64,000 nucleotides of DNA from Spirochaetia bacterium (GCA_965203905.1 CBDBDQ010000005.1:896001-960000); one strand, 5' to 3'. Shown: positions 2,127 to 21,913, counted from the first letter of the stretch. Numbers and translations are program-made. Notes: generated by a model not told the origin, from the letters alone.

Positions 2127-3299
2127 CTAGTCGGCCGTCAGTGCGGCTGCGGCAGTGGTTATGCGCTCGATGATCCGGGCCACTTCATCGTCCGAGAAGT
2201 CGGGATGGGTTGTCAGGCACACGGTCCTGCCCAGAATCTCCAGCGACTGCTTGCACATCTCCGTCGAGTAGTTCATCCGGCAGCCCCGGTTCTGCTCCAG
2301 CGCGAACGGATTCACCGCCGCGTGGTGGGCGCCGCGGTGCTCCAGCACCGGGTCCCACTCGGTGTACACGTGACGCCCGGTCTTCAGCGCGACCCAGCCA
2401 CCGCTCTTCTCGGCCAGCGCATCGGCTGCCGCCGCGGTCGGCAGCAGGAAGGCGACGTGCGTGCCGCACTCCCACGCCGGGCTGTTGCCGGGACTCGGCG
2501 TCAGGCCGCAAGCCGCAGTCTCCGTGAGGATCCTGCTCTTCTGCGCCCGCATGGTGGCGATCATATCGTCGATCCGGTCGAGCTGGCAGTTCATGATCGC
2601 GCCTTCGATCTCCGATGCGCGCGCCCCGTTCGCCAGGTAGCCGGCGAAGCTCTCCTTGCGGCCGTCCCAGTAGAAGCGGCAGGGGTCGATCGCGCACTCG
2701 ATGCGCTCGGCGAAGGCGTCGTCGTCGGTTACCAACGCGCCCCCTTCGCCGCAGCTCATGTTCTTGTAGTGGTTGAAGCTGAAGGCGCCGATGTGGCCGA
2801 TCGAGCCGAGCATCCTGCCCTCGTAGGCACCCCCGACGCCCTGGCAGGCGTCCTCGATCACCAGCAGGTCGCGCTGGGCGGCGATCGCCATGATCGAGTC
2901 CATGTCGCAGGGCAGGCCCCACATGTGGACCGGGATCACCGCCCGGGTGCGCGGCCCGATGGCATCCCGCAAGGCGGCGGGGCTCATTCCGATGCTCTCG
3001 TCGATATCGACGATCACGGGGATCGCGCCGGCGGCGAGCACCGATCCGGGCGTGGCCATGTAGGTGCAGGCCGGGACGATCACCTCGTCGCCGGGGCCGA
3101 TGCCCGCCCCCATGAGCGCGGCGGTCAGCGCATTGCAGCCGCTCGCCGTCATCAGGCAGTGGCGTACGCCGAGTCGCTGTGCATAGCGCGTCTCGAAGAG
3201 CTTGCACTCCCCGGCCCCGGCCTCCAGGTAGCGGAACAGCCTCCTGGTCACGAAGACGCCGGCTATCCGATCCAGTTCTGGTTGCCCGATTCTATACAT
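2127..3299 (-). CDS. DegT/DnrJ/EryC1/StrS family PLP-dependent aminotransferase
   Basis: GIGPGDEVIVP, VIEDACQ, FSFNHYKNMSCGEGG (PLP lysine). Confidence 0.93.
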   Translation of the reverse strand: MYRIGQPELDRIAGVFVTRRLFRYLEAGAGECKLFETRYAQRLGVRHCLMTASGCNALTAALMGAGIGPGDEVIVPACTYMATPGSVLAAGAIPVIVDIDESIGMSPAALRDAIGPRTRAVIPVHMWGLPCDMDSIMAIAAQRDLLVIEDACQGVGGAYEGRMLGSIGHIGAFSFNHYKNMSCGEGGALVTDDDAFAERIECAIDPCRFYWDGRKESFAGYLANGARASEIEGAIMNCQLDRIDDMIATMRAQKSRILTETAACGLTPSPGNSPAWECGTHVAFLLPTAAAADALAEKSGGWVALKTGRHVYTEWDPVLEHRGAHHAAVNPFALEQNRGCRMNYSTEMCKQSLEILGRTVCLTTHPDFSDDEVARIIERITTAAAALTAD

Positions 3300-3619: not shown

Positions 3620-5047
3620 TCACGTACTGGCGTCATAAAATGCTCGGACACCATCGAGTAAGGCAAGGGCACGTTCCTTCCTTGTATCCTCATACTTCAA
3701 CTGCCGCACTAGATACGCGTAAGCCGACGCTGCGACCTCCCTCTTTCCTGCAGCTACACTCAGTGCCCACGCACGACACTCTCGAACGAACTGCGCGAAA
3801 GGGCATTCCTTCACATAGACCTCGACATCTCCCCATGCATGTGCGTCCTCCGTACTAGGCCATGCGTCAATCGATCCTGGGCCATCCGGATGAAACAGGA
3901 CACTGAGTTCAAGCGTGATCGGATCCATGCTCGCGGCGCCAGCCCCGACGTCGCTATAGTCAATAAGAGCTATACCGTTCCGAGAAACAAGTATGTTCTT
4001 TCCGTGAAGATCGCCATGGCCACACGCCCACCGCGCCTGAATTTGCCGACTCTCAAAGTCCCGAACCCACCGCAGATCGAAATCTCGTACGACACCACCG
4101 AGTGCTTGGTCGTCTACGACTCGGTGACGTAGGACCCCAATACTTTTCCTGGTCTCTGGCACACCGTTGTTCCACGGTAACGTGACAGACTTCAAACACC
4201 GAACGACAAATGCCGACCGTTCAGAATCACCTACGACATCGAACGCAGAGTCGTCGAACCCTTCCGCCAGTCCGAAAAATATGCCTGCCAACCTACAGGC
4301 ACCAAATTCCAAAGTCGCCAACTTTCTCGGAGTTGCCGCTGGACCCAAACGAGCGATATACTCGTCGTAACGGTCCCCCTCTCTTCTAATGTCAGCATGC
4401 GTCGAGAGCTTGGCAACGGCGTCGTGTACCTGCACTCCTTGTGTATCGGTGACTCGAAGCCTGATGATCCTGGCGCCTGATAGGCCGTTGTTCAGACCAG
4501 ACACGACACACCTTACCCCTTGAAATCTCCGAGCGAATATCCTGATTAGGCGATCCTCAGGTTCGCTAAGCTCAATCTCATTTCGCTCCAGTTCGACGTC
4601 TGACAGACCTTCGATTGCTCTTGCTATTGGCTCTACAAACTCGAGACATCGGTCGATCTCATACTTCTTCAGAAATAGTACGGTCCCGCTCTTTTTTCCC
4701 GCGCCCCAGATATCGATCTGTTGTACGTGTTTTAGGACCAAGTCAGAAAGAAATGCCTCAGCTGGTGAACCAGTAATTACGAATATCGGTGTACCAGGAG
4801 CAAGAACTCGAACCCGGTTGAAAACGGCGTGCCCATGTTCGGGATCTTCGTCGAGCGCGCCGTTGACGGTTGGGATCTTCAGATCCAGAATCACCAGATC
4901 CGAAAACCCTTCTTGAAGCATATTGAAGGCTTCGTCGCGGCTGCCGGCTACGCGGATATCGCTGTTGCAAGACAAACTCGAAATAATCAGGCGCAGCTCG
5001 TCCACGAAGTCCGTGTCATCCTCAATGATAAGTATATGAAGTATCAT
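3620..5047 (-). CDS. Response-regulator receiver domain fused to APH/protein-kinase-like phosphotransferase
   Basis: N-term ILIIEDD...LVILDLKIP...VITGS...FLKK (REC); C-term GLSGARI, AVAKL, HGDLHGKNILV, IDYSD; ATGA overlap with upstream gene. Confidence 0.8.
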   Translation of the reverse strand: MILHILIIEDDTDFVDELRLIISSLSCNSDIRVAGSRDEAFNMLQEGFSDLVILDLKIPTVNGALDEDPEHGHAVFNRVRVLAPGTPIFVITGSPAEAFLSDLVLKHVQQIDIWGAGKKSGTVLFLKKYEIDRCLEFVEPIARAIEGLSDVELERNEIELSEPEDRLIRIFARRFQGVRCVVSGLNNGLSGARIIRLRVTDTQGVQVHDAVAKLSTHADIRREGDRYDEYIARLGPAATPRKLATLEFGACRLAGIFFGLAEGFDDSAFDVVGDSERSAFVVRCLKSVTLPWNNGVPETRKSIGVLRHRVVDDQALGGVVRDFDLRWVRDFESRQIQARWACGHGDLHGKNILVSRNGIALIDYSDVGAGAASMDPITLELSVLFHPDGPGSIDAWPSTEDAHAWGDVEVYVKECPFAQFVRECRAWALSVAAGKREVAASAYAYLVRQLKYEDTRKERALALLDGVRAFYDAST

Positions 5048-5928
5048 CTATCCCATCGAATCTCGAAGCGGGTACCGCCCTCCATGCCGGGTTGTAGAGT
5101 ACAGACACCGCCCAGAGTCTCGATAGCCTGTCGCGCAATCGTAAGGCCAAATCCTCTATGATCCTTCTTTGTAGTTCTACCGATACCGAATGCAGACTCG
5201 GCAGACCCAACCACACCTGGTCCGCGATCGAGAACCGAAATCCAGTAGTCGACATCGGTCTCGCCCCAAGTTATCACAATAGGATGTGGGGCTATCCGCT
5301 TAGAAGACAATACGGCTTCGACAGAGTTACGAATACCGTTACAAATTGCTAGCCGAATAAGCGCGGGATCGGAGACGATCGGCATCGGCTTTGTGCCGTA
5401 CAAAGAGACTTCGACTTGATGATCTCCGAGTTCGGCTTTCACGGTGTCGATAAGCAACTCGGCCAAGTCGAATTCTTCCGGTCTCGGAGCGGCGGAGGCG
5501 GACTTCAATTGCTCTATTGCCGCAAAAACGCGCTTCAGGTTCTCGACAAACCGCCTCGTCGTAGAGCTCTCGTAGTTCGGAACCTCTCGCTTGGCTGATG
5601 CTGCGATCAGACCAACGGGTGACGCGATTTCGTGGAGAACGAGCCCAGTGATCTCTTCAGTGACTTCACCTCGTATGTGTTTCGTTACATGTGACGGAAC
5701 ATCGTACTCGTCATCTGTGGCAACTGACTTGAGCGGTGCTGAATCGGATGCGCGGCGAATTGCGAACTTAAGAGCTCTACGCACGTATGAGACGGGCTCT
5801 ACGTGCAAAGCCTCGCGCAAGAAAACGAGATCTACAACGCTGGCGTGTCGAGCCAGATAACGAGCAGCAGTCAACCGCTCATGAGCAGCGTCGGAGTTAA
5901 GTGCTATCTGCGCGGTCTCTCGTGTCAT
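5044..5928 (-). CDS. Cytoplasmic histidine kinase with N-terminal HEAT-like helical domain
   Basis: H-box LHEIASPVG, N-box NGIRNSVEA, G1 DRGPG, G2 GFGL; N-term ERLTAARYLA...LREALHVEPVSYVRRAL is HEAT-like; no TM segment; ATGA overlaps on both sides. Confidence 0.82.
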   Translation of the reverse strand: MTRETAQIALNSDAAHERLTAARYLARHASVVDLVFLREALHVEPVSYVRRALKFAIRRASDSAPLKSVATDDEYDVPSHVTKHIRGEVTEEITGLVLHEIASPVGLIAASAKREVPNYESSTTRRFVENLKRVFAAIEQLKSASAAPRPEEFDLAELLIDTVKAELGDHQVEVSLYGTKPMPIVSDPALIRLAICNGIRNSVEAVLSSKRIAPHPIVITWGETDVDYWISVLDRGPGVVGSAESAFGIGRTTKKDHRGFGLTIARQAIETLGGVCTLQPGMEGGTRFEIRWDR

Positions 5929-7766
5929 TGTGGTCTGTTTTGGTTATAGAACTTTACCCTTCTTTCAAAGGCGTCGGCACCGCCCTCCATGACAGAAGTA
6001 ATTGCTTTGACTACCTGGGGATCTTCAAGCGGAGCCTCCAAGATGGAAAACCCGCGTCTACCGTCTGATCCGAGCTGTATGACCCGATCAGCGCTTCCCA
6101 GCACCGGGATATTCGCGTTATGGGTCGAAAAAATTAACTGACCCTGATTGCTTCGCCGGAGAACGGAGACTATAAGTGTGTCTGCGATAAACGCATTGTC
6201 GATATGATCCTCGGGCTGATCCACGATCACCACGCGGTCGGTATGCAAGAGCACCAGTGGGAGAACTACTGTACACCGTTGTCCAGTCGACAGCTCACCG
6301 AACCCCTTATAGCCGGCGCCATCGAGGAGCTGTAAAGCCACTGCATCCTCGACAGCGACGGTAGCTATCGTCCCCAAGTCCGCATCACGCAACTGCCCCA
6401 ACACGCGGGCCGCGCGCTCTCGTGTGATACCTGTCGTCTCGGCGATCAGGCCGAAGTCATTCGTATCCACCGCTTCTACCAGCTCCCGCGGACTGACGAT
6501 CGGTGCGACCACTAAAGAAAGTTCATTGTACCGTAGACCACTACCTCGCAGAGCTTCCGCTACCGCCGCAGCATAAGCTTCATACTGTCCTGCACGTAAG
6601 ACTTCAACTCGGACACTCGGACCAAGCGTCTCCGTGAGTCGCGCAGCAACACTGCTGCGAGTCCTAAATCGTTCTTCCCTAATGGACTCCAACCTATCTA
6701 ACGCCGCACTCCGCCGCTGAATAATTGAATCGAGCGCCATCTGACGATCCGCCAAAACGCCTTTGAGGGCTTCCAACTCGGCTCTTTGCTCGCGAAGCTG
6801 CTGGCCTCGACGCAGAATCACTCCGGTCCCGTCTTGTAGTGTGTCAATTGCCCTCCGTAATTGCCTAGCTCGTTCCTCAAGATCAATCTTGATGCTTGCC
6901 GAACCCTGTCGCGCCTTCTTTACCGAGGATTCCACGCTTTCTAGTTCAACAAGCACCCTATTCAGTTGATCTTTTGCGAGATCCACGCCCTGGCGAGATG
7001 ACTGAAGCGCATCCGGACCGGCTCCTCGCGGCCACGGATCGAATATAGGAACCGACGAAACAACCGCCGAAAGGGAAGCACGCCATTCAGTTACGGACCT
7101 AAGAAAACGATCAATCGCAGCAATTCTCACAGCAGCAGACGCGATTTTGTCAGAGATTGTGTCCAAGTGTCCCTTCTTTCCCTTTGTGTCCGCTTTGAAA
7201 TTGGCAAGTCTCTGTTCCTGCGGAACAAGATCAGCGATTTGTTTGTCCAGGGAAGGAATCTTCTCCAGCTGTGCCCGCATTCCATCGATCTCTCGTCGCA
7301 ATACCTTCGATTGAGTAGTAAGCGACCGCACTTCGGAAGCCGTTGCGGATTCTTGCACTCTCGTTTCGCGTTGGTCGCCACTGAACCCGTCGACAAGTCT
7401 GACCCTACCCTGAGCCTGCAGTCCTACGGCTTCGATTTCTGTCTGAGAAAAAATAATCGGATATGTATAGGGTCCCGTGGCGCGCTGCGAGTTATCGGCC
7501 GTGGTGCGTGTGACAAGAGTATCACGCTCACCATCGGTAAGCGTGATTGAAATCTGGCCACTCCCCAGCACTGAAATGGCGTGAGCGGTACTGCGCCTTG
7601 CCGACTCAGCAGTGTACCCTTGAACACCTAGACAGAAACGAATCAGCTCTATAAGGGACGTTTTGCCCGTCCCGCGCTCGCCAATTATAACGTTGAGTCC
7701 CTGAGCAAAGGAGATGTCCAGGCCGTCGAGGAATCCTTCCTCGACCTGTACGCGCTTAATCCGCAT
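5925..7766 (-). CDS. Coiled-coil (SMC-like) ABC ATPase, TrlF/Ppl-type ATPase module without a PHP domain
   Basis: Walker A GERGTGKT, Q-loop FSQTEIE, long coiled coil, signature LSTGQR, Walker B VIVDQPEDHID, H-loop STHNAN; AGGAG RBS before ATG 7766. Confidence 0.85.
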   Translation of the reverse strand: MRIKRVQVEEGFLDGLDISFAQGLNVIIGERGTGKTSLIELIRFCLGVQGYTAESARRSTAHAISVLGSGQISITLTDGERDTLVTRTTADNSQRATGPYTYPIIFSQTEIEAVGLQAQGRVRLVDGFSGDQRETRVQESATASEVRSLTTQSKVLRREIDGMRAQLEKIPSLDKQIADLVPQEQRLANFKADTKGKKGHLDTISDKIASAAVRIAAIDRFLRSVTEWRASLSAVVSSVPIFDPWPRGAGPDALQSSRQGVDLAKDQLNRVLVELESVESSVKKARQGSASIKIDLEERARQLRRAIDTLQDGTGVILRRGQQLREQRAELEALKGVLADRQMALDSIIQRRSAALDRLESIREERFRTRSSVAARLTETLGPSVRVEVLRAGQYEAYAAAVAEALRGSGLRYNELSLVVAPIVSPRELVEAVDTNDFGLIAETTGITRERAARVLGQLRDADLGTIATVAVEDAVALQLLDGAGYKGFGELSTGQRCTVVLPLVLLHTDRVVIVDQPEDHIDNAFIADTLIVSVLRRSNQGQLIFSTHNANIPVLGSADRVIQLGSDGRRGFSILEAPLEDPQVVKAITSVMEGGADAFERRVKFYNQNRPQ

Positions 7767-8459
7767 TGCGAGTTCTCCTATTGGAGTCTGAGAGCGTAGC
7801 GTACCCATCCCTTATTAACAATGGCGCCACACCGCCGGAATACAGTTGTTTATTGCAATGATACTCTCGTCGTAAACGAGCCCGGCATAGTGTGTCCGAC
7901 TGAATTGCACTCAAGGACCGCTCTCCCCCCACCGCGTCCATGGCGGGTTTAGCCTGCTGCTGATCGACCACGTCATGGGTGTAGTCTGAGCGTGAGCCAG
8001 CCAGCCAGAAAAAGGAGAGTCCCTTTGTCACCGGCCCCGAGGGCAGCGTTCCCTCCTTCACACTCTTTGGTTCGTCCTTGACAGTACGGAGGGCAGAGAT
8101 CTCGGGCTACCACAGCTGCACGTACGAAGGGTAGCATAGACTCGGACTCCTACTCCATCCTCTCGGCGCTGACACGGGGCTGAGTGAGCGTAGTGGAGTT
8201 GCGTCGCACTGTAAGGCCGGTGCACACGTCATGCTCGAAGACAGCGTAGCAATGTCCTGCGGCTAGTTCGACCGCACGAGCCGGTCCTTTCAGTGGTGCG
8301 GTCGGGAATCAAGCGCAGATGGACTTCCGCCGCTCTGAAGGAGCTTGGAGGGCGGCAAGTGCGCGTGTTGCGCTTGGTGGTGATCCAGCGCAGGGCACCT
8401 CATGCACGCCCGCGGTTGGACTGGCCAACCGGAGCCGACAAACAGATCGGCCGCAACGA

Positions 8460-9659
8460 TTACCTTTCCCTGGCGATCTCGCCCGCGGGGCTGGCGTCGA
8501 GGGCGTACACCTGGCGCGAGCCCTCGTGCACCGAGTCGAAGGCGATCCAGCGGTCGTGCCGGTCCCAGCGCGGGTGCAGGTCGCAGCGCACGTCGCCGCG
8601 GGCGTAGGGAGGAGAGTAGAAGCGCCCCAGCACGGTCAGCCGCCGCTGCCGCCGGTCCCAGATCTGCAGGGTCTGCAGCCGCTGTGCGTCGGGGTAGGTG
8701 TCCACCAGCAGCCAGGCGCCGGCGCGGGCGAAGTTGCAGTGGCCGTCGACGGTGACCGCCTCCGGCGCTATCACCTCGGACTCCCGCGTCTCGACGTTGA
8801 ACAGGTAGAAGTGCTCGCCCTCCCCCACCAGGTCGGTCCATACCAGGAGCCGCTCGGGATCGAGCCAGTCGTGGTGCGAGACGTGGTAGTACGGGGTGAG
8901 GCAAGCCAGCTCGCTGCCGTCCAGGTTGGCGACGAAGAAGGCCGACGTGCGCACCCCCTGGCGCGGTCCGGCGGCGGGGTTGTAGCAGGCGTGCCACGAC
9001 ACCCGCGTGTCGTCGGTGTTCACGGTGGTGTGGTTGAACCACATCGAGCGGTCGCGCAGGTCGGCGTCGGGATTCAGCTCGAAGGCCTGCGCGAAGGAAA
9101 CCAGCAGTTCGCTGGCGCCGGTCTCGAGGTCGAGCAGGAACAGGCCGTCGTCTTCCGGGTGCGGCACGTCGATGTTGGGGTCGTCCACGCCGGCGTAGCC
9201 GACCACCCGCCGGCACTGGCGCATGCGCGCGTAGTTGAGCGAGAACGCCTTGCGGCCGTCGTTGGTGAGTCCGGCGACCGGCCGCGACAGCACCCGCTTC
9301 TCCCCCGAGAACACGTCCATGACGACCGACACGAAGCGATCGCCGTCGCGGTCGTTGTAGATGATCTTGCGGTCCGGGGCGGTGGGCAGCCAGTGCAGCA
9401 TACTGCCCTGCTGCAGGTTCCAGGCCTTGGTCTCGGTCAGCGGGTGGAAGCGCCGGGTCTCCCACTCCACCATGCCGATCACGGCGGTATCCCGCGCCGT
9501 GGGAAACCGGTCGTCGAAGTCGCTCTCCAGCGCCAGCACGTACTTGCCGGTGCTGTCCCAGGTCTGGATGTCGTAGTACCCGAAGAAGTGATGCCTGGGT
9601 CCCCGGGTCAGGGCAATCACCTCGAAGCCGTACTCGTTCCTCATCTTCACCCTCTCCAT
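8460..9659 (-). CDS. Beta-propeller protein (TolB/oligogalacturonate lyase-like)
   Basis: HHFFGYYD, AWNLQQG, DGHCNF, DTYPD, RCDLHPRW motifs. Confidence 0.65.
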   Translation of the reverse strand: MERVKMRNEYGFEVIALTRGPRHHFFGYYDIQTWDSTGKYVLALESDFDDRFPTARDTAVIGMVEWETRRFHPLTETKAWNLQQGSMLHWLPTAPDRKIIYNDRDGDRFVSVVMDVFSGEKRVLSRPVAGLTNDGRKAFSLNYARMRQCRRVVGYAGVDDPNIDVPHPEDDGLFLLDLETGASELLVSFAQAFELNPDADLRDRSMWFNHTTVNTDDTRVSWHACYNPAAGPRQGVRTSAFFVANLDGSELACLTPYYHVSHHDWLDPERLLVWTDLVGEGEHFYLFNVETRESEVIAPEAVTVDGHCNFARAGAWLLVDTYPDAQRLQTLQIWDRRQRRLTVLGRFYSPPYARGDVRCDLHPRWDRHDRWIAFDSVHEGSRQVYALDASPAGEIARER

Positions 9660-9671
9660 TCACAGGCGGTG

Positions 9672-9719
9672 TCAGAGTTGTCCTCTGAGCTGTGTAGTAT
9701 CACTCACGATGCTGCGCAA
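9672..9719 (-). pseudogene. Remnant 5' end of a PIN-domain gene (MRSIVSDT..., 15 aa then stop)
   Basis: TTG CGC AGC ATC GTG AGT GAT ACT overlaps the stop of the XRE-ImmA gene; IVSDT resembles the first PIN strand. Confidence 0.4.
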
Positions 9720-10794
9720 CAGCCTGCCCAGGCCCCTTCAATCCTCGTGCGACCTGCTCTGGGGACTGGTGCAACAGCTCACAGGCTTTGCCTAAGGAGA
9801 TCAGACGCTCCGCCAGCGCCCAGTAGCAGAGCCGCTCAAACCGACGGGGCAGTTCATGACCACCTGCCGCGCCCAGCTCTTCAAGCGGTTCCGGTTCGCT
9901 GGACCGCCACTCCCGCGCAAAGGTCTGGAACGCGTACGCAAGCGTCGATGGATCGATCACCCCTACCTGCTTCAGACGCATCATCAGCGCTGCGGCACTC
10001 ACTCTGTACATCCATTTGAGTTGAATCAGTTCACGGTACCCGATCGCCTTGCGGCGGGTTCCAATCTCTCGCACGAGATGAGTGCGGGGCATCAGAAAGG
10101 CGCCTGCAAAGACATTCGCGGCACGTTCGTGGTGCACCGGCGAGTTCGCGTCAACCAAGTGGTGTGCCAGCTCGTGGGCAAGCGTCATACGCCGCCGTTC
10201 AAGCGTGACCTCCCGATTCACCACAATTACCGGCACCTTGCTACTCCGGAGCCGCCGGCGGACCAGGCAGGCTATTCCCGACACCCGCTGCGGCAAAGCG
10301 ATCACCAGTACCTTGACTCCGCGGTCTTCCAGTAGGGAAGTCATGTTCGGAATCGGGTCGACTCCGAGCCGCCATTCGTCGCGCATGTCATCTGCCACGA
10401 CCTCGCCGTCATCCACCTGTCCGAGGAAGCGACTCCCAAGTCGAGGCGTACGCCATGCGCCGTCATCCAGTCCCAGAATCTCCTCGATGGTCAGATACCG
10501 CTGCAAGCGATCTATCACTTCAGCTTCCACCCGTGCCCGGTCACGGGCCGACGTGCTCGAACGCTTGCGGAATGCCACCCCCTCCAGCTCCTCGACCTGT
10601 TCGCTCAGCAGGTATTGGAGGGAAACGCCCAGTACCCTTGTCAGCCGGTTCAGCACCCTGGAACTCGGCATCATCTCGCCGCGCTCGTATTTGCCGATGG
10701 CCTGAGCGGTGACTTCGCCGGCCAAGGCATCCGACAGGCCACGCAACGAGAAGCCGGCCTTCTTTCGGGCGAGTCTCAGGCGGTCTCCGAACAT
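9700..10794 (-). CDS. XRE HTH fused to ImmA/IrrE (DUF955) metallopeptidase
   Basis: N-term RLRLARKKAGFSLRGL...AIGKYERG HTH; RRMTLAHELAH HExxH; ERAANVFAGAFLMP. Confidence 0.92.
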   Translation of the reverse strand: MFGDRLRLARKKAGFSLRGLSDALAGEVTAQAIGKYERGEMMPSSRVLNRLTRVLGVSLQYLLSEQVEELEGVAFRKRSSTSARDRARVEAEVIDRLQRYLTIEEILGLDDGAWRTPRLGSRFLGQVDDGEVVADDMRDEWRLGVDPIPNMTSLLEDRGVKVLVIALPQRVSGIACLVRRRLRSSKVPVIVVNREVTLERRRMTLAHELAHHLVDANSPVHHERAANVFAGAFLMPRTHLVREIGTRRKAIGYRELIQLKWMYRVSAAALMMRLKQVGVIDPSTLAYAFQTFAREWRSSEPEPLEELGAAGGHELPRRFERLCYWALAERLISLGKACELLHQSPEQVARGLKGPGQAVAQHRE

Positions 10795-10934: not shown

Positions 10935-12548
10935 TCAGGGGCTGGCGATGGTGATGGTTTGGTTGGCGGGGAGGGCGCGCAGCAGGGTGACCTCGCCGTC
11001 AGCCCAGCGCACGCGGACTTCGTCGGCCAGGGGTGCGGTGCCGAGGCCGAAGTGGGCGGACAGCTCGGAGGAGCCCAGGTAGTTGGAGCCGCCGTCCAGG
11101 TAGCGGTACTGCACCAGATCGGCGGTGCTCACGGTGACCAGGCTGCCGTAGCCGTTGGGCGCGAGGTCGGGCGCGGCGCCGGTATCGAGGAAGATGCGCA
11201 GCCAGTTGCGGCCGGGGCCGGCGAGGTCGTTGCAGAACAGGCTCATGCCGCCCTCGTTGTTGAAGATCAGGATGTCCCGGTCGCCGTCGGCGTCGTGGTC
11301 GAGCGTCACCAGGCCGCGGCCCTGCAGGCGGTGGTCGAACCCGCTCTCGCGCGAGATCTCGGTGAAGGTCAGGTCACCGTTGTTGCGGTACACGTAGCTG
11401 CGCTCGTGCAGCCACTCGCGCTCGAAGTTGACGTTGGGCTCCCACCAGCCGTTGGTCTCCACGATGTCCAGGTAGCCGTCGTGGTCCAGGTCCACCGCCG
11501 CCGCGGCCCAGCCCCAGCCGCCGTCCTTGACCCCGGCCGCGGCGGAGCGCTCCTCGAAGCGGTGCCCGCCGCGGTTGACGTAGAGCATGTTGCCGGTGCC
11601 GGGTGTCACCGCATCCACCGCGTCGGTGTAGATCGAGGTGACGTACCAGTCGAGCAGGCCGTCGTTGTTGAAGTCGCCCACGGCGCTGCCCATGCCGTTG
11701 CCGTCGAGGCCGGTGCCGGAGGGCACGGTCCAGTCGCTGAAGGTGCCGTTGCCGTTGTTGCGGTAGTAGCGGCTGGTGCCGTAGTCGGCGGCCAGCAGCA
11801 GTTCCGGGTAGCCGTCGCCGTCCATGTCGGAGAAACGCGGGGAAAGGCCGCGGCTCATGCCTCCCACCACGCCGCTGGAGTCGGTGACGTTGCGGAAGCT
11901 ACCGTCCCCCTGGTTGCGGAACAGCGCCGCCGCCGAGGCGCCGTGGCTGAAGGCGGCGATGTACAGGTCCAGGTCGCCGTCCAGGTCGTAGTCGCCGAAG
12001 GTGGGGCCCAGTCCGTAAACGGTGCTCTCGTAGCCCAGGTCGATGCGCGCCAGCACGTTGACCCCGGCGCCGTCGGCCACCTCGCTGAAGGTGCCGTCGC
12101 CGTTGTTGCGGTACAGCAGGTGGTAGCCGGGCAGCGTGGTGCGCGACTCGTCATCGCCGGCACTGGCCACGAACAGGTCGACCCAGCCGTCGCCGTCGAA
12201 GTCGCCCACCGCCGAGCCGTAGCCGCGGTGCAGCCGCACCACCCCGGCCGCCGCCGCCCGCTCGCTGAAGGTGCCGTCGCCGTTGTTGTAGTACAACGCG
12301 TCGGGCGCCGTGCCGCCGGTTACGTAGAAAATGTCCTGCCAGCCGTCGTTGTCGAAGTCCGCCACCGAGCCGCCGGAGGTCATCGAGTGGACGATGGGCG
12401 GCGGCTGTTCGTGGTCGGGCGTGGCCCACAGGCCCGCGGCCGCGGTGCAGTCGCGGAAGCTCAGCTCGGCGGTGGCGGCCACCGGTGCCGCCAGCAGGGC
12501 GGCGGCCGCGAGCAGCAGGTGCGCCACGGACGGCAGGTCACGAGCCAC
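10935..12548 (-). CDS. CRTAC1-family secreted FG-GAP repeat protein with ASPIC/UnbV C-terminus
   Basis: Signal peptide; repeated DFDNDGWQD / DYDLDGDLD and LYRNNGDGTF; GGSNYLGSSELSAHFGLG, VRWADG. Confidence 0.9.
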   Translation of the reverse strand: MARDLPSVAHLLLAAAALLAAPVAATAELSFRDCTAAAGLWATPDHEQPPPIVHSMTSGGSVADFDNDGWQDIFYVTGGTAPDALYYNNGDGTFSERAAAAGVVRLHRGYGSAVGDFDGDGWVDLFVASAGDDESRTTLPGYHLLYRNNGDGTFSEVADGAGVNVLARIDLGYESTVYGLGPTFGDYDLDGDLDLYIAAFSHGASAAALFRNQGDGSFRNVTDSSGVVGGMSRGLSPRFSDMDGDGYPELLLAADYGTSRYYRNNGNGTFSDWTVPSGTGLDGNGMGSAVGDFNNDGLLDWYVTSIYTDAVDAVTPGTGNMLYVNRGGHRFEERSAAAGVKDGGWGWAAAAVDLDHDGYLDIVETNGWWEPNVNFEREWLHERSYVYRNNGDLTFTEISRESGFDHRLQGRGLVTLDHDADGDRDILIFNNEGGMSLFCNDLAGPGRNWLRIFLDTGAAPDLAPNGYGSLVTVSTADLVQYRYLDGGSNYLGSSELSAHFGLGTAPLADEVRVRWADGEVTLLRALPANQTITIASP

Positions 12549-12558
12549 GGATGGCGGC

Positions 12559-14268
12559 TCACCCCGTGCGCCCGCAGGCGTAGACGTCGATGGTGCCGTG
12601 CGGGTGCGGGGTGTAGGGCTGCTGGGTGATCTCGCCGCGCGGGTAGAGCAGGTAGGAGGCCTCGTTGGGCACCTCGGTGGGGACCACGTCGACCAGCACG
12701 CCGTGGCCGTCGAACACCTGGCAGTTGGGGTTGGGGGCGAAGCGCTGCAGGTCGGAGCAGCAGGTGACCTGCTGCAGCGCGTCGGGCAGCCAGTCGATTA
12801 CGTGCGGCCCGTGCATGCTCATGAAGCGGCGATCCCACAGGCGGCCGCCGCGGTGGTCCCGCACGTCGGTCCACTCGCCGTGGATGAAGTGGCGCGAATG
12901 GCGGTACTCGCGGTCCCCGAATACGAGCTGCAGACCCGGCAGGTCGTCGCGCAGGCGGGCGGCGATCACGTTCTGGCCGTGCCAGGTGGGGTCGATCCAC
13001 AGCCGCTCGCCGCTGCGCGCGTCCAGCACCAGGCGCGAGGAGTAGGCGATCTGCGCGCCGCCGTCGCCGGCCAGGTCGCCGCCGGCGGACATGTCCACGT
13101 GGTCGTCCTCCCACGGCGCGGCGAACGCCTCGAACGGCAGCTCCCACAGCACCCGGCCGTCATGGTCGAGCAGCTCGGTGCCGACCGCGACCTCCTGGCG
13201 CCCGTCGCCGTCGGCGTCGAACAGCGCCGGGTCGTGGCCGGCGCGGCCATTGTCGCAGGTGTACTGCCACAGCGGCCGCAGCTCGCAGTCGAACGCCGCC
13301 AGGGTGAGGCAGTTCTGCTCCCCCGCCTGCACCAGCAGGTCGCCGCGCCGCCCGTGGCCCTGGAAGTCGGCCGGGCGCACGTAGCCGCCGATCATGTGCA
13401 GCCCCTCCACGGTGCGGATCAGGTGGCCGCTGCGGAACAGCCGCTCGTGCAGGTCGGGTTCGTCGGGCGCCACCGGCTGCAGCGAGTTGATCACCGGGTA
13501 TTCCACCTCGCGCAGCACGCGACCGCTGGCGCCCTCCAGCTTGCACAGCCGGATGTTGCCGAGCGACCCGCGCACGCAGTACAGCTCGGCGCGGCCGTCG
13601 CCGTCGGCGTCCCACAGCAGCGCGTTGGAGCCGTAGCCGAGGGCGCCGTCGGGATCGTCGTAGCGCCACAGCAGCTCGCCGCTGCTGCGGTAGGCGGAGA
13701 GGTGCGCGGCGCCGGCGACGTTGAGGTATTCGCTCTCCCCGTCGCCGTCCACGTCCCCCACCAGGGCGAATCCGGCGAGGTAGCGGGCCATGCGCGGCTG
13801 CCGCTGCCAGTGGTCGGCCGCGAGCGGGATGCGGTGTTTCAGGTAGGGCAGCGCCCCCACCTCGAAGGCGAGCGCGTCGCCGCCCACCGCCGTCCCGCGG
13901 GCGTCGACCAGCTCCGCCTCGGCGCGGTAGCGGCCCGGCGCCAGGCGCTGCACGTCGAACACCTCGCCCACCTCGCGGTCCACCAGCACCCTGCTGTCGA
14001 ACAGCTCGGTGTGGGCCACGCACGGCCCCCGCGGATAGATCTGCTCGGGCAGCTCCAGCCGCGGCGCGTCGCGGCCCTCCTCGTAGATGCGCGCCCGCAC
14101 CGCGCGGTAGGGCCGCGGGGAATGGGGGAACACGACGTGGAAGGCGATCCCCCAGGGACAGGGCTCGCCGACCCGCGTCGGACGGGAAGTGGCGACCCCG
14201 ACGATGCGCAGGAACGGCTCCATCGGATGCGGCGGCAGGTGGGCGTACTCGGCAACGTCTCGGTTCAT
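12559..14268 (-). CDS. FG-GAP/beta-propeller protein, rhamnogalacturonan-lyase-like
   Basis: Start MNRDVAEY at 14268 (ATGA overlap, GGAGG RBS); DVDGDGESE, DADGDGRAE, GHDPALFDADGDGRQE, DDHVD. Confidence 0.6.
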   Translation of the reverse strand: MNRDVAEYAHLPPHPMEPFLRIVGVATSRPTRVGEPCPWGIAFHVVFPHSPRPYRAVRARIYEEGRDAPRLELPEQIYPRGPCVAHTELFDSRVLVDREVGEVFDVQRLAPGRYRAEAELVDARGTAVGGDALAFEVGALPYLKHRIPLAADHWQRQPRMARYLAGFALVGDVDGDGESEYLNVAGAAHLSAYRSSGELLWRYDDPDGALGYGSNALLWDADGDGRAELYCVRGSLGNIRLCKLEGASGRVLREVEYPVINSLQPVAPDEPDLHERLFRSGHLIRTVEGLHMIGGYVRPADFQGHGRRGDLLVQAGEQNCLTLAAFDCELRPLWQYTCDNGRAGHDPALFDADGDGRQEVAVGTELLDHDGRVLWELPFEAFAAPWEDDHVDMSAGGDLAGDGGAQIAYSSRLVLDARSGERLWIDPTWHGQNVIAARLRDDLPGLQLVFGDREYRHSRHFIHGEWTDVRDHRGGRLWDRRFMSMHGPHVIDWLPDALQQVTCCSDLQRFAPNPNCQVFDGHGVLVDVVPTEVPNEASYLLYPRGEITQQPYTPHPHGTIDVYACGRTG

Positions 14269-15914
14269 GACGCCTCCTTGCAGGAGAAGTCGGCGGGATA
14301 GAGCCGGCAGCCCTTCAGGTAGGGGCGCTGGTGGCGGGTTTCCTCGGCGGTGTAGTAGACGCAGAGGATCTCGCCATCGGCAAACTGCACCCAGGAGGAA
14401 CCGCCGAAGTCGGCGATCGGGTCCCAGTCCACCTCCACCATGGTGTCGCGCTGATACTGGTCCGGGTACTCCCCGCCGGCCGCGTCCCAGCTCCAGCTCA
14501 TGTCGGGCGTGGTGGCGTTGCGCACCTGGACGCTCACCGAACGCCAGATGCTCTCGCCGGCGAAGCCGCGGCGGGCGAAGTTGTCCCAGCGCCACACGCT
14601 GCCGGCCCACTCGTCGGGCATGTGCTGCGCGGCGCGGAAGGTGGTGCCGAAGGCGCTGCGGTCCTGGCCCCACTGGCCGAAGCGGCGGCCGCCGGTGCGG
14701 GTGAGCCGCTCGCTGCGGATGACCTGGTCGCCGTCGACGCTCACCGTGAGGCTGGTTGCGTCACGCACCACCCGGTAGCGGTGCCGGCGGCTGGCGTCTA
14801 GGCGCCGTACCGTGTCGGGCTGGCCGCCGATCTCGATGCGGTCGGGAAAGAACACCAGCTCGCCGGCATCGGTCACGTTGATGGCGCAGGTGTGCTTCCA
14901 GCCGGCACGCGCCTCGTTGCTCACGCAGCGCAGCTCCGCCTCGATGGTGACCACGCTGTCGTGGTGCTCCGGCGGCGGCAGGAAGTACGCGGGAGGCACC
15001 TCCTCGGGAGCCCCGGTGCAGCGGATCCTGAGCCCCTCGGCCGTCAGGGCGGCGCAGCCGTCGTTGCCCCAGCGCGAGGACACCCGGTAGGCGCCCGGCT
15101 CGCACGGGTCGCCGCACCAGGCGTACAGCGAGGAGTTGCCGCTCATCTGGCGGTAGGTGGCGAGCATGCGCCCGTCGTGCAGCAGGCCGCAGCGGTGCAT
15201 GCCGCCGTAGGTGCCGGACAGCACCGGCGCGGACCAGGTTCGGCCCCGGTCTTTGGAAAAAATCTTGGGCGAGGGGTGGCTGTAGCCGTTGGAGTTGCGG
15301 ATGTGGCACACCAGGGAGCCGTCGGGAAGCTGCACGGTGGCACCCTCGCCGGAGCCGCCGAGCACGTCGGTGTCCCAGATCACGCCGTCCTCCCGCCAGG
15401 TGGCACCGCCGTCCTCGCTCCGATACTGCACCAGGTGCAGCAGCGGCGGGCGAAAGCAGCGCTCGATGGAGCCGGGCTTCTCGCGTTCCACGGTGACCAG
15501 CAGGGTGCCGTCGTCCAGTTCCACCACCTGGTCTGGGCACTGGCCGTGGATCGGGGTCGGCTGCGGTTGCGACCAGGTGCGGCCGCGGTCGTCCGACCAG
15601 ATCAGAACGTTGTCGTTGCCGCGGTCGCCGATCACCACCAGGCGGCCGTCCCGTAGCGCGCTGATGCGCGGCAGGTTCCAGTTCGGGCGGCTCGGAGCGT
15701 CCAGGACGATGCGGTGCCGGTGCCAGGAGCGCCCGCGGTCCTCGCTCTCGATCAGCGCCACCCGCGACCAAGCCGGGGCGTGCGCGTCCGACTCGCGGTA
15801 CAGACACAGCACGGTGCCGTCGTCGAGCAGCACCAGGTCGGGAAACGCCTCGTAGAGCTCATCGTTGCGGGTCACGATAAGGTGGCGCTCGGCGACGCCG
15901 TCGAAGCTCTTCAA
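14265..15914 (-). CDS. Sialidase-family (BNR/Asp-box) protein
   Basis: Asp boxes SEDRGRSW, SDDRGRTW, SEDGGATW, SKDRGRTW; inserted beta-sandwich. Confidence 0.82.
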   Translation of the reverse strand: MKSFDGVAERHLIVTRNDELYEAFPDLVLLDDGTVLCLYRESDAHAPAWSRVALIESEDRGRSWHRHRIVLDAPSRPNWNLPRISALRDGRLVVIGDRGNDNVLIWSDDRGRTWSQPQPTPIHGQCPDQVVELDDGTLLVTVEREKPGSIERCFRPPLLHLVQYRSEDGGATWREDGVIWDTDVLGGSGEGATVQLPDGSLVCHIRNSNGYSHPSPKIFSKDRGRTWSAPVLSGTYGGMHRCGLLHDGRMLATYRQMSGNSSLYAWCGDPCEPGAYRVSSRWGNDGCAALTAEGLRIRCTGAPEEVPPAYFLPPPEHHDSVVTIEAELRCVSNEARAGWKHTCAINVTDAGELVFFPDRIEIGGQPDTVRRLDASRRHRYRVVRDATSLTVSVDGDQVIRSERLTRTGGRRFGQWGQDRSAFGTTFRAAQHMPDEWAGSVWRWDNFARRGFAGESIWRSVSVQVRNATTPDMSWSWDAAGGEYPDQYQRDTMVEVDWDPIADFGGSSWVQFADGEILCVYYTAEETRHQRPYLKGCRLYPADFSCKEAS

Positions 15915-17665
15915 GCGCCCGACCCGGCCGCCGCGCCCGTTCCGGGGTCCGCGCCACCGCCACCGCCACCGCCACCGCCGGGAAAATCGCCCGGGTGGAC
16001 GTAGGAGCCGCGGATGTACGGCTGCGGCTTGTAGGGGGGCGGAAAGGGCCGCGGCACGTCGCTCGCGGTCTGGTAGACGCAGAAGATGCGCCCGTCGGGC
16101 AACTCCACGCAGCCCGGTTCGCCCGAGTCGCCGCCGGGATCGCGCACCACCTCCAGCAGGTGATCGCGCTCGTACTGGTTGGGGTAGGTGCCCGAGGCGG
16201 CGTTCCAGCGGAAGCGGTAGTCGGGCAGCGTCGGGTTGCGCACCGTGAGCGACACCGAGTGCCAGTAGCTCTCACCCGGGTTGGCGCGCGGCGCGTAGGC
16301 ATTGCGCACCGAGTGCATACCGGGGATGTGGGAGGTGGCGCCGAAGCTGTTGATGTCGTGCCCCGCCGGGCCCCAGCGCGGCTTGATCAGGGGCTGGGTG
16401 CGCAGCAGGCGGTCGGTGGCGATGCACTCCACGCCGTCCACGCTCACGGTGAGCGTGCGGTCGGGCGTCCTGACGATGCGGTAGGTGTGCCACCTGGTCG
16501 CGTCCACGGCATGCGCGGCGATGGTCTCGACCTCCCCGGTGAAACCGCCGCGCTTGCCGCCGTAGTCGATCTCCTCCTGGACGAAGGCAATGTGGTCTGG
16601 AAAAAAGCGCAGCTCGCCGGCCTCCATCACGTTGATGCAGCACTGGTCGCCGCGGGGATTGGCCACCACCCGCACCCGCGCCTCGAACACGATCTCCGCC
16701 AGCTCGTTCTCCGCCGGATGCAGCAGGTAGTAGGGCGGTATCTCCGCTTCGTCGCCGTTGGTCTTGATGCGCAGCCCCTCGGGAGTGAGGGTGGCGCAGC
16801 CGTCGCGGCCGTCGTAGCAGGAGGCCTGGATGTCGGTGGTGTCGTGGCCGTCGCCGCGCCACATCGCCACGCCGCTGAACCCGCCCACGTGCTCGTACGC
16901 CAGCAGCAGGTCGCCGTCGGCCAGCAGGTAGGCGTTGGGCTGCGCCATGAACACGCCCGTCTCCTGCGGTTCGCTCCAGGTGTGTCCGTCGTCGTAGGAG
17001 TAGCACTTGAAGGAGGGATAGTGGATGAAGGAGTCCTCGCGCGTGTGGCACACCAGGGTGCCGTCGTTGAGCCGCACGATCGGCCCCTCGCTGTGGGAGT
17101 GCACCGAGCTCTCCGCCACCACCGCCCGGAACTGCCACTCGCGGCCGCCGTCGGTGGAGGCCCACACCACCACCCGGTGGCGCAGGCGCCAGGCGCGGCG
17201 CCGTGGCAGGATCCCCTCGACCAGCGGCAGCAGCAGGGTGCCGTCGGGGAGCTGCACCAGCCGCCGCGGCTGGAAGCCGGTCACCGGAATCGGCTGCGGC
17301 TCGCTCCAGGTCCGGCCCCCGTCCGTGCTGCGGAACAGGAAGGTGGTGCCGGTGTTGGCGAACCCCGAGGCGGTGATCAGCAGGGTGCCGTCGGGCAGCT
17401 TGTCGACCCGCGGCATCGCCCAGTGGCAGGTCGACTCGTCGGCCAGCACCCGGCGCTCGCCCCAGGTGCGGCCCAGGTCGGTGCTCTCGCGGAACACCAG
17501 CCTTGCCCAGTTGCCACTCGAGTGTCCCGCCGCCTCGCGCCAGACGCAGATCATGTGCCCGTCGTCGCTCACCGCGACGTCGGCGTACGCCTGGTACAGG
17601 TCGTCGTCGCGATCGATGGTTACGTGACGATCGGCCAGACCGTGAATGCTCCGCAATGCCCCCAT
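15911..17665 (-). CDS. Sialidase-family (BNR/Asp-box) protein, paralog of the downstream gene
   Basis: Asp boxes STDLGRTW, STDGGRTW, STDGGREW, SYDDGHTW; GGAGG RBS. Confidence 0.82.
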   Translation of the reverse strand: MGALRSIHGLADRHVTIDRDDDLYQAYADVAVSDDGHMICVWREAAGHSSGNWARLVFRESTDLGRTWGERRVLADESTCHWAMPRVDKLPDGTLLITASGFANTGTTFLFRSTDGGRTWSEPQPIPVTGFQPRRLVQLPDGTLLLPLVEGILPRRRAWRLRHRVVVWASTDGGREWQFRAVVAESSVHSHSEGPIVRLNDGTLVCHTREDSFIHYPSFKCYSYDDGHTWSEPQETGVFMAQPNAYLLADGDLLLAYEHVGGFSGVAMWRGDGHDTTDIQASCYDGRDGCATLTPEGLRIKTNGDEAEIPPYYLLHPAENELAEIVFEARVRVVANPRGDQCCINVMEAGELRFFPDHIAFVQEEIDYGGKRGGFTGEVETIAAHAVDATRWHTYRIVRTPDRTLTVSVDGVECIATDRLLRTQPLIKPRWGPAGHDINSFGATSHIPGMHSVRNAYAPRANPGESYWHSVSLTVRNPTLPDYRFRWNAASGTYPNQYERDHLLEVVRDPGGDSGEPGCVELPDGRIFCVYQTASDVPRPFPPPYKPQPYIRGSYVHPGDFPGGGGGGGGGADPGTGAAAGSGA

Positions 17666-17778
17666 GCTGCCACCTCCCGCCGCCAGCCGGCGCTTATGTC
17701 TCCGCCAACAGTATCACCAGTACCCGTTTCCCGCACGCGTGCCGGCAAGGTATAAACGCGAACCAGGAGCAACACTGC

Positions 17779-18744
17779 ATGGCAGCACGACCCAAGGTCC
17801 TGATTCTGGGCTCGCCGGTACCCGGTCACCGGCCGGAGCGCGAGATCCTCGAGCCGCTGGCGGAGATCGTGACCGCGCGGGTGGACGCCGGCGCCGACCT
17901 GGCCGCCGCGGTGCGCGACGTGGACGCGGCGATGATCGGCCTGCAGCCGTTCGATGCCCCCCTGATCGCCGGCATGCGCCGCTGCCGGGTGATCTCGCGC
18001 TACGGCATCGGCTACGACAACATCGACGTGGACGCCGCCACCGGCGCCGGGATCTGGGTCGCCCGGGTGCCGGACTACGGCTGGGAAGACGTGTCCGATC
18101 ACGCCATCGCCCTGCTGCTGGCCTGCGTGCGCGACCTGCGCAGCTACGACCGGCTGGCGCGCGCCGGCCGCCACGGCAGGCCACGGGCGCTGTTCCGGAT
18201 GCAGGGCCGGACCTGCGGCGTGATCGGCTGCGGCGGCATCGGCAGCGCCCTGGTGCGCAAGCTGGGCGGCTTCGGGCTGGCCCGCATCCTGGTGCACGAT
18301 CCCTACCTGCCGGAGGCGCAGATCGCCGCGGCCGGGGGCGTCGTCAGCGACCTTGAGACACTGCTGCGCGAGTCCGACTTCGTCTCCCTGCACACCCCGC
18401 TGAGCGACGACACGCGGCAGATGATCGGCGGCGCTCAGTTGCGGCTGATGAAACCCACCGCGATCCTGATCAACACCGCGCGCGGCGGCCTGGTCGACCA
18501 GGCTGCCCTGGCCGCCGCGCTGGCCGACGGCACCATCGCCGCCGCCGGCCTGGACGTGTTCGAGACCGAGCCGCTGCCCACCGACAGCCCCCTGGCGGCC
18601 CTGGACAACGTCATCCTCAGCAACCACATGGCGTGGTACACCGAGGAGTCGGCGGTGGAGCTGGCCACCAAGGCTGCGCGCAACGTGAGCGAGGTGCTGT
18701 GCGGCCGCCCGCCGGTGTACCCGGTCAACCGCATCGAGCCATGA
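17779..18744 (+). CDS. D-isomer-specific 2-hydroxyacid dehydrogenase (CtBP-like)
   Basis: RYGIGYDNID, GVIGCGGIG, INTARGG, GLDVFETEP, NHMAW; AGGAG RBS. Confidence 0.93.
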   Translation: MAARPKVLILGSPVPGHRPEREILEPLAEIVTARVDAGADLAAAVRDVDAAMIGLQPFDAPLIAGMRRCRVISRYGIGYDNIDVDAATGAGIWVARVPDYGWEDVSDHAIALLLACVRDLRSYDRLARAGRHGRPRALFRMQGRTCGVIGCGGIGSALVRKLGGFGLARILVHDPYLPEAQIAAAGGVVSDLETLLRESDFVSLHTPLSDDTRQMIGGAQLRLMKPTAILINTARGGLVDQAALAAALADGTIAAAGLDVFETEPLPTDSPLAALDNVILSNHMAWYTEESAVELATKAARNVSEVLCGRPPVYPVNRIEP

Positions 18745-21622: not shown

Positions 21623-21730
21623 ACTCAATATAGACACGTAACGGTGAAGCCCGAGGCGTGCAATTCGTCTGTATGATTCCTCTGCTTCTTGACCGTGGTG
21701 CAAGACACCGCTCTATAGTCTATCAGGACG

Positions 21731-21864
21731 CCCTGGCGGCCCTGGACAGCCGTCACCCTCAGCACCACATGGTTGTACACTGAGGAGTCGGCGGTGGAGC
21801 TGGCCGCCAAGGCGACGCGCAACGTGAGCGAGGTGCTGTGCGGCGGACCGACGGTGTACCCGGT
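21731..21864 (+). repeat. Degenerate copy of the dehydrogenase 3' end (source 18590-18725)
   Basis: ccctggcggccctggaca...gaggagtcggcggtggagctggcc...aacgtgagcgaggtgctgtgcggc...ggtgtacccggt in both places, with indels. Confidence 0.92.
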
Positions 21865-21870
21865 TATTTG

Positions 21871-21910: not shown

Positions 21911-21913
21911 GTG

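Follow-up and report, generated by a model that had tools for sequence, protein, structure and literature searches.

SMC-like ATPases act as sensors of foreign DNA in bacterial defence, including LmuB of Lamassu and JetC of Wadjet, and Wadjet recognises plasmid DNA. Here we describe a cassette of three genes, all on the minus strand, at positions 3620 to 7766 of a 64,000-nucleotide stretch of a Spirochaetia bacterium genome (GCA_965203905.1 CBDBDQ010000005.1:896001-960000; hereafter the window, with coordinates counted from its first letter). The genes encode an SMC/Rad50-like ATP-binding cassette (ABC) ATPase (gene A), a soluble histidine kinase (gene B) and a receiver domain fused to an APH/TCAD9-type kinase (gene C). 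The trio is a real, conserved, mobile and unnamed unit, and its best-supported reading, which we favor on balance, is that of a self-contained, horizontally mobile conflict (immune) cassette.

The closest precedent is Detocs (DtcA/DtcB/DtcC), in which a relay from a histidine kinase to a receiver-effector protects against phage, as the available part of its report describes (bioRxiv 10.1101/2023.01.24.525353). The Detocs effectors are mostly PNP ATP-nucleosidases, and the main text, as far as available, names endonuclease and membrane variants and no kinase (bioRxiv 10.1101/2023.01.24.525353). Detocs resembles the cassette in being a three-gene operon with a cytoplasmic histidine kinase that signals to a receiver fused to an enzymatic, non-DNA-binding effector, and we count its exchangeable effector domain, as presented in that part of the report, as a further likeness. 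The DtcC-type arrangement of a receiver with an enzymatic, non-DNA-binding domain is present in gene C, but the enzyme is a kinase. Detocs carries its own sensor in the TPR-bearing kinase DtcA whereas the cassette kinase is minimal, at 294 aa, and lacks a TPR. Detocs also has a stand-alone 'buffer' receiver, DtcB, and we found no DtcB-like gene in the flanks of 42 cassette loci or among the upstream open reading frames (ORFs) of 39. Finally, the cassette adds an obligatory SMC-like ATPase and an APH/TCAD9 kinase effector.

For the ATPase, the nearest described proteins are Ppl, an uncharacterised one-gene anti-phage system with ATPase and PHP domains (PMC11482910, available part), and TrlF, the PHP protein of the Photorhabdus temperature-restriction locus (bioRxiv 10.1101/2020.06.02.129163, available part). 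Gene A shares with Ppl/TrlF (NF042955, NF045780) a coiled-coil ABC ATPase that is homologous along its whole length, and the same DQPED-type Walker B/D-loop. Its nearest curated family is the NCBIfam TrlF family AAA-like ATPase (E = 1e-66, 226.4 bits, cut-off 350), and because the alignment runs from model position 294 to 943 of 944, the two have the entire ATPase module in common but not the N-terminal PHP part. Ppl is matched more weakly (PADLOC E = 2e-17; NCBIfam Ppl 80.6 bits, cut-off 1000). Pfam finds no PHP domain in gene A, whose protein begins 28 residues before Walker A, whereas Ppl and TrlF carry an N-terminal PHP phosphoesterase; Ppl is a single gene, and the output of the cassette is a separate His-Asp relay. 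As gene A lacks PHP and scores under both curated cut-offs, it is not a Ppl/TrlF member. The relationship to the Ppl module without its PHP domain, which an earlier sequence-based account of this locus (the original prediction) had pointed to, is thus borne out by NCBIfam and PADLOC.

Gene A resembles Lamassu and Wadjet in having a long antiparallel coiled coil on its ABC head (Foldseek entries 9uxh, 9hqu, 9qxu and 8dk2), and PADLOC LmuB models match its N-terminal head (E = 5e-15). Its arm is much shorter, however, the cassette has no nuclease, and sequence similarity is confined to the ABC motifs; without LmuA/LmuC or JetA/B/D partners, the cassette is neither Lamassu nor Wadjet. The kinase of gene C leads to a different group of systems. 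Effectors of vWA-based conflict systems include active APH-like kinases and receiver domains, and the available part of the report states that its authors found no histidine kinase in the vWA-associated set (PMC7159879). TCAD9 is linked to vWA-MoxR-VMAP in a figure legend of a second, partly available report (PMC10910872). Although the cassette kinase belongs to the same Pfam family, TCAD9 (PF19974), vWA, MoxR and VMAP genes were not found in the window flanks, nor did they recur around the 42 loci. Ambrosia (AbrR-AbrA-AbrB-AbrC-AbrD), which acts against phage, likewise has a histidine kinase and a response regulator built into it; in contrast to the cassette, it is described in the available part of its report with a methylase, an HNH nuclease and a winged helix-turn-helix response regulator, and without an SMC-like ATPase or kinase effector (bioRxiv 10.1101/2025.09.30.679545).

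PADLOC-DB 2.0.0, NCBIfam 20.0 and Pfam contain no model specific to the histidine kinase or receiver-kinase of the cassette, and the trio has no name in them. A full-text literature search found no description of it, with Krishnan et al. 2020 (ABC ATPases in conflict systems) and Detocs Table S5 outside its reach, and the available parts of PMC7159879, PMC10910872, PMC12839542, PMC11482910, bioRxiv 10.1101/2023.01.24.525353 and bioRxiv 10.1101/2025.09.30.679545 do not describe it either. A relay to an enzymatic effector has parallels (Detocs), and the composition of the cassette has none. The original prediction had not matched the architecture to any named system; this stands for its composition in the libraries and literature searched and does not extend to the relay logic, which Detocs and Ambrosia parallel.

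Gene layout and conservation as a unit

Gene A occupies 5925..7766 (-) and encodes 613 aa, gene B 5044..5928 (-) and 294 aa, and gene C 3620..5047 (-) and 475 aa, with stop/start ATGA overlaps at both the A/B and B/C junctions. ORF calling opened the frame of gene A further upstream (5925-7808, -). We set aside the upstream ATG at 7808 in favor of the ATG at 7766, which has AGGAG 9 bases ahead of it and yields the homologue-typical 613 aa; among the 120 best homologues listed, lengths are mostly 613 aa and otherwise 608-680 aa. The predicted layout of three genes, two ATGA overlaps and an end at 7766 is thus supported by the ORFs, the AGGAG and homologue length. Composition also sets the genes apart, as had been predicted: GC is 0.536 across 3620-7766 compared to 0.656 for the whole window and 0.713 for 11000-19500, and GC at third codon positions (GC3) is 0.53 in all three genes compared to 0.90-0.94 in two high-GC neighbors (2127-3299 and 8460-9659).

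We identified 389 relatives of the receiver-kinase in a word-index search; 119/120 of the relatives listed carry both PF19974 and PF00072, with lengths of 456-509 aa and 56-73% identity to the query. An exhaustive search of cluster representatives (50% identity clusters) returned 409 proteins at E <= 1e-30. Scanning species genomes with the single protein found no relatives, and an alignment-guided repeat found them: this profile-guided scan of one genome per species yielded 62 loci, of which 42 cover at least 90% of the receiver-kinase. We treated as informative the 41 loci that combine this coverage with at least 2.8 kb of upstream DNA, and counted the ATPase and histidine kinase as present when each was at least 80% covered. 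Both lie directly upstream of the receiver-kinase, in the same order, in 39/41 informative loci, in keeping with the co-conservation expected from the original prediction, and the remaining two, L012 and L017, have decayed.

All three genes are single-frame in 32/39 complete loci. There is no fourth conserved gene, as no family among the 525 flanking ORFs reaches more than 7/42 loci. No Pfam family is common to the 77 ORFs that immediately precede the ATPase at 39 loci, and none of these ORFs encodes a helix-turn-helix (HTH) protein; the 4.1 kb cassette has no need of a fourth gene. When pairwise distance matrices were compared between the three proteins across 21 cassettes, r was 0.89-0.91, a level reached by 0/2000 permutations. 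This correlation indicates inheritance as one block and by itself is no demonstration of physical interaction.

Features of the three proteins

Gene A matches the Pfam families AAA_23, AAA_21 and SMC_N. Translation of exact coordinates placed its Walker A motif GERGTGKT at 7659-7682 (-), the ABC signature LSTGQR at 6276-6293 (-), the Walker B/D-loop DQPED at 6207-6221 (-) and the H-loop His at 6120-6122 (-), and these motifs are invariant in an alignment of 21 sequences. Together with a Q-loop and a coiled coil between the head halves, they give gene A the full set of features of an SMC/Rad50-class ABC protein. In the predicted structure (predicted local distance difference test (pLDDT) 88) the head is split by an antiparallel coiled coil of ~105 residues (133-237, 255-381), and a conserved helical subdomain at 396-469 holds the top non-catalytic conserved block of the family, RGSGLRY...SPRE. 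In Foldseek, gene A comes closest to the Smc head, JetC (Wadjet), Rad50, RecN, MukB and LmuB (Lamassu). Sequence searches of the PDB with profiles returned only motif-level receiver, ABC and SMC matches.

Gene B contains a HATPase_c domain (E = 2.7e-9, 37.9 bits vs a cut-off of 26.4) and carries the H-box His and the N, G1 and G2 boxes of a two-component kinase. The H-box LHEIAS lies at 5620-5637 (-), with His99 at 5632-5634, and translation of exact coordinates located the N-box Asn (Asn201) at 5326-5328 (-), the G1 box DRGPG at 5215-5229 (-) and the G2 box GFG at 5146-5154 (-). H99, E100, N201, D234, G236, G238, G259 and G261 are invariant or nearly so in 21 sequences. The HisKA family finds no match in gene B, which indicates that its dimerization and histidine phosphotransfer (DHp) region is divergent.

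Pfam detects no sensor domain and no TPR in gene B, and none of the three proteins has a membrane segment (top Kyte-Doolittle 19-residue mean <= 1.56). Residues ~1-60 of gene B form a short helical N-terminus with a conserved ERLxAARxL-type motif. Here Pfam HEAT_2 is sub-threshold (E = 0.068, 13.9 bits vs a cut-off of 27.7), PADLOC weakly matches the tail of its RT_UG23 model, and a search of the ESM Atlas with the kinase N-terminus gave no usable match. The original prediction had described a HEAT-type kinase without a membrane sensor: hydropathy upholds a soluble protein with no such sensor, and HEAT_2 stays under its cut-off. That label, a tentative assignment drawn from the sub-threshold and weak matches and the ERLxAARxL-type motif, is the least secure point of the observation.

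Gene C passes the Pfam cut-offs for TCAD9 (PF19974; 57.9 bits, cut-off 40) and Response_reg (PF00072; 36.1 bits, cut-off 30.2), with APH just under its own (21.5 bits, cut-off 23.2). Its receiver has an acidic pocket, a phospho-acceptor Asp and the conserved Thr/Ser and Lys: Asp55, at 4883-4885 (-), is the phospho-acceptor by sequence, accompanied by Thr92 and Lys128, and Glu9, Asp10, Asp55, Thr92 and Lys128 are invariant in 20 sequences. The kinase, in addition to its TCAD9 gathering score, has the elements of an APH-like enzyme: a catalytic Lys (Lys213, 4409-4411, -), a Glu (Glu223), the HGDxxxxN loop (HGDLHGKN, 3995-4018, -, including His344, Asp346 and Asn351) and a metal-binding Asp (Asp363, 3959-3961, -). 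Lys213, Glu223, His344, Asp346, Asn351 and Asp363 are all invariant in the same number of sequences. The catalytic motifs across the trio, which had been described as intact, are all in place by translation and invariant in 20-21 homologues.

The predicted structure of gene C (pLDDT 74) matches, by Foldseek, maltokinase, glucosamine kinase, the lanthipeptide kinase LxmK, the amicoumacin kinase AmiN, APH(3'), methylthioribose (MTR) kinase, YihE and choline kinase, with corramycin phosphotransferase, APH(2'') and hygromycin kinases also among the best fold matches of the kinase. As these matches span such different kinases, the fold is compatible with either a small-molecule or a protein substrate. 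Neither Pfam nor structure matches show a DNA-binding output domain, consistent with the predicted response regulator that lacks one, and the output, an APH-like kinase, retains its catalytic residues.

Single-frame cassettes occur in hosts from Campylobacteraceae to Dehalococcoidia, and mean column identity in the kinase domain is ~70% among 20 receiver-kinases, whose named sources include Paracoccaceae and Acidobacteriota. This degree of identity argues for one universal target.

We also observed the kinase domain alone (residues ~143-473), at 41-49% identity, as the C-terminal part of five other proteins, P0186, P0187, P0252, P0183 and P0181. The N-terminal parts of these proteins, whose lengths are 475, 564, 910, 945 and 976 aa, are WD40 propellers. 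The combination of WD40 with a TCAD9/APH kinase is a second architecture of the same output module.

Distribution, mobility and decay

The cassette is present once in its own genome and was found in none of 40 relatives (10 sharing its genus, 13 its family and 17 its order). Elsewhere it occurs in Alphaproteobacteria (Sphingomonadales, Rhodobacterales, Bradyrhizobium and Methylosinus), Betaproteobacteria (Massilia) and Gammaproteobacteria (Pseudomonas), and in Acidobacteriota, a Campylobacteraceae bin (GC 0.27), Acidimicrobiia, Dehalococcoidia, Latescibacterota and Planctomycetota. In all, it is found in at least nine phyla. Most copies in species genomes are chromosomal. We also found the cassette in 47 plasmid records (36 from Piscirickettsia, 3 from Klebsiella and single records from Vibrio, Rhodococcus and others), seven of them conjugative, with one Klebsiella IncF copy close to repA, and in 0/50,697 phage records. 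The cassette is foreign to this genome and horizontally mobile, with a patchy spread, plasmids included, like that of horizontal gene transfer. RefSeq labels its products 'AAA family ATPase', 'HAMP domain-containing sensor histidine kinase' and 'response regulator' or 'phosphotransferase'. In a search for an empty site in 10 same-genus genomes, the flanks fell into large paralogous families, and no more than a single contig-end match rose to 92% identity.

This plasmid carriage bears on a rather improbable alternative, an anti-plasmid or inter-element module in which the ATPase would recognise an incoming or resident plasmid and the relay would arrest the cell or hit the element, or through which plasmids would exclude competitors. 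It would suit the plasmid records, the absence from phage records and the place of JetC among the best structural matches of the ATPase. However, the cassette has no nuclease or other DNA-directed effector, and most copies in species genomes are chromosomal; this alternative also departs from the reading as an immune cassette only in the invader targeted.

Decay is frequent. Frames are broken in 7/39 complete loci, ~10 further loci are remnants, and the receiver-kinase gene is interrupted by an IS110 element in L021 (8077-9971) and by an IS21 element in L046 (7267-9974), so that the presumed effector gene has been struck in two unrelated cassettes. Frame breaks, remnants and insertions fit a costly effector. 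The same decay, together with plasmid carriage and the mobile, patchy distribution, would also be expected of a selfish addiction (toxin-antitoxin-like) module, in which a kinase toxin restrained by the relay would be kept by post-segregational killing. We consider such a module very unlikely, since addiction calls for less than three large proteins, all enzymatically intact and including an ATP-driven sensor, no small labile antitoxin is present, and the same distribution is seen in many defence systems.

Defence genes around related cassettes

To ask whether defence genes recur around the cassette, a check suggested with the original prediction, we scanned two ORFs on each side of it at 42 loci (155 proteins) against PADLOC. 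As controls, treated with the same gene caller and rule, we used 19 arbitrary regions of relatives of this genome and 20 regions lying 100 kb from 20 of the cassettes on their own contigs. Control regions had a match at E <= 1e-10 in 8/19 arbitrary and 4/20 same-contig cases. Generic models account for most of these control matches: group II reverse transcriptase, homing endonuclease, IscS-like SspA/DndA, RtcR, ABC-type mad3/mad8 and PycC-like cyclases. DEDDh and C3a214 also matched ordinary genes. Because ordinary genes are matched in this way, single-protein PADLOC matches are a poor proxy for a defence island, with such matches in 12/39 control regions. The loose count (any PADLOC match at E <= 1e-10) was dropped as a defence criterion, since generic models brought the arbitrary regions of relatives to 8/19.

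We then applied a strict 'defence-specific' criterion, E <= 1e-50 minus generic models and exonucleases, under which 11/42 cassette loci and 1/39 controls scored (Fisher p = 0.0025), or 11/42 and 2/39 when the candidate family PDC-S31 is counted in the controls (p = 0.0097). The loci scored carry type III restriction-modification (R-M) (L002), dCTPase (L004), type II R-M (L005), type IIG (L022), ZorC (L024), HamC (L031), type II methylases (L035), HKD-Snf2 (L036), HmaC (L041 and L044) and Shedu SduA (L048). At three of the closest relatives (L002, L003 and L006, 61-65% identity) the gene directly upstream of the ATPase ends in a restriction-endonuclease domain (PF19778), and at L002 it is part of a complete type III R-M pair upstream of the cassette. 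Among plasmid copies, that of Caballeronia adjoins an integrase and has DUF1837 and helicase genes near it, and the Klebsiella IncF copy has SMEK and phospholipase D genes near it. Enrichment of defence neighbors around the cassette is thus suggestive and falls short of being established; the island enrichment envisaged in the original prediction appears under the strict, partly post hoc criterion and not under objective ones.

Several results weigh against the immune reading. Under objective criteria cassette loci and controls are not separated: any match at E <= 1e-10 occurs at 19/42 cassette loci and 12/39 controls (p = 0.13), and a match at E <= 1e-50 at 12/42 and 6/39 (p = 0.12). The strict result is partly post hoc, as its exclusion list was fixed after the first control had been viewed, and in the same-contig matched subset it falls to 5/20 vs 1/20 (p = 0.09). 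About half of the loci have no recognisable defence neighbor. The second half of the receiver (residues 56-129) is modelled at low confidence, the structures nearest to the kinase are those of small-molecule, sugar and antibiotic kinases, a result that suits a metabolic or resistance role too, and some frame breaks are perhaps assembly errors in metagenome bins.

Some of these results would fit an accessory stress or resistance module, in which the relay would turn on a small-molecule kinase that inactivates an antibiotic or xenobiotic or reroutes a metabolite, with no anti-invader role. Its support comes from the best fold matches (AmiN, corramycin phosphotransferase, APH(3'), APH(2''), hygromycin kinases, maltokinase and glucosamine kinase), from the failure of the objective neighborhood criteria and from RefSeq annotation that is generic only. 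We regard it as improbable, a little more so than an anti-plasmid role, since it leaves unexplained the obligatory Ppl/TrlF-related SMC/Rad50-like ATPase, the membership of the kinase in the conflict-tied TCAD9 family, the want of a ligand-binding or membrane sensor in the histidine kinase, and the recurrent position of the cassette beside R-M, Hachiman, Shedu, Hma, Zorya and BREX.

Proposed mechanism

In the favored reading of the trio as an immune cassette, the SMC/Rad50-like ATPase would sense foreign DNA structures or ends, or a phage protein, by analogy with LmuB, JetC, AriA and presumably Ppl. The histidine kinase, having no sensor of its own, would take its input from the ATPase, perhaps through docking of the short N-terminal helices, and would autophosphorylate His99. 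The phosphoryl group would pass to Asp55 of the receiver and switch on the fused APH/TCAD9-type kinase, which may then phosphorylate a target common to very different bacteria, whether a small metabolite, a nucleotide or a conserved protein. The predicted outcome is halted growth or blocked invader replication. The ATPase also occurs fused to PHP in TrlF/Ppl and the kinase also occurs behind WD40, so both ends of the cassette are reusable parts, and a reusable sensor-like ATPase with a reusable output-like kinase fits a sensor-transducer-effector reading.

More speculatively, the cassette might represent a new immune class in which an SMC/Rad50-like ATPase reads invader DNA and, via a His-Asp relay, an APH-type kinase, in place of a nuclease, NADase or pore, shuts down the cell or the invader by phosphorylating one small molecule or protein that is conserved universally; we hold this full version to be possible and rather doubtful. 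If true, this would be the first use of a small-molecule-type kinase as a defence effector and the first case in defence of a two-component relay downstream of an ABC/SMC sensor. Should the cassette defend at all, it would unite the SMC/ABC sensing of Lamassu, Wadjet and Ppl with the phosphotransfer to an effector of Detocs, and would bring a new effector chemistry, that of an APH-like kinase. Finding the universal target could reveal a new way to arrest bacterial growth. The cassette also offers a natural experiment in modular evolution, with one ATPase module that feeds a relay here and is fused to PHP in Ppl/TrlF.

Neighborhood of the cassette in the window

The BREX locus that had been reported 1.9 kb away on the same strand is present, with BrxA at 885-1727, BrxB at 353-919 and the BrxC N-terminus at 3-356, at that distance from the receiver-kinase stop. 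This type 1 BREX is complete in families (brxA, brxB, brxC, pglX, pglZ and brxL), and the remainder, made up of the rest of BrxC with PglX, PglZ and BrxL, lies to the left of the window (L064 9216-19996, corresponding to G000:C5:885216-895996). A DegT/DnrJ/EryC1-type aminotransferase gene (2127-3299, -; E = 3e-72, GC3 0.90) lies between BREX and the cassette. The blocks on either side of it have GC3 of 0.53-0.58, and a high-GC3 gene between two low-GC3 blocks suggests that BREX and the cassette may be separate insertions.

Upstream of gene A, a leader of ~690 non-coding bases (7767..8459, -) holds no conserved regulator gene and presumably contains the promoter of the cassette. A scan for consensus promoters and terminators found sites no commoner than in shuffled sequence, and a 101-aa ORF at 7756-8061 has no Pfam family. 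Further upstream we observed an HTH and M78-peptidase gene (9700-10794, -) that matches PADLOC RmrA (E = 1e-46), followed by a gene for a 399-aa protein with no Pfam family (8460-9659, -; GC3 0.94). The two (8460-10794) may be a RosmerTA-like pair with an unrecognised toxin. Frames at 8290-9663 (-) and 8319-10019 (+) were rejected as shadows, since GC3 favors 8460-9659 (-).

An AbiEi/AbiEii pair lies at 21773-23361 (+), 14 kb from the cassette. It falls in a second low-GC block (20103-23361, +; GC 0.52-0.55). The same block holds a gene for a DUF6575 protein (20387-21622), and a small ORF in it weakly resembles PD-T4-10_A (E = 1.5e-5). The second low-GC block and AbiE point to a patchy defence island over at least 45 kb. 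No tRNA genes were found in L064 or in window positions 1-30000. On the left, an rve-type transposase gene (L064 2999-3883, -), ~5 kb beyond brxL, may mark the edge of the island. Within BREX, PglX appears as two ORFs in different frames with a 4-base overlap, L064 16028-16915 covering model positions 4-272 and L064 13542-16031 covering positions 290-1123; the split could be a frameshift, phase variation or genuine.

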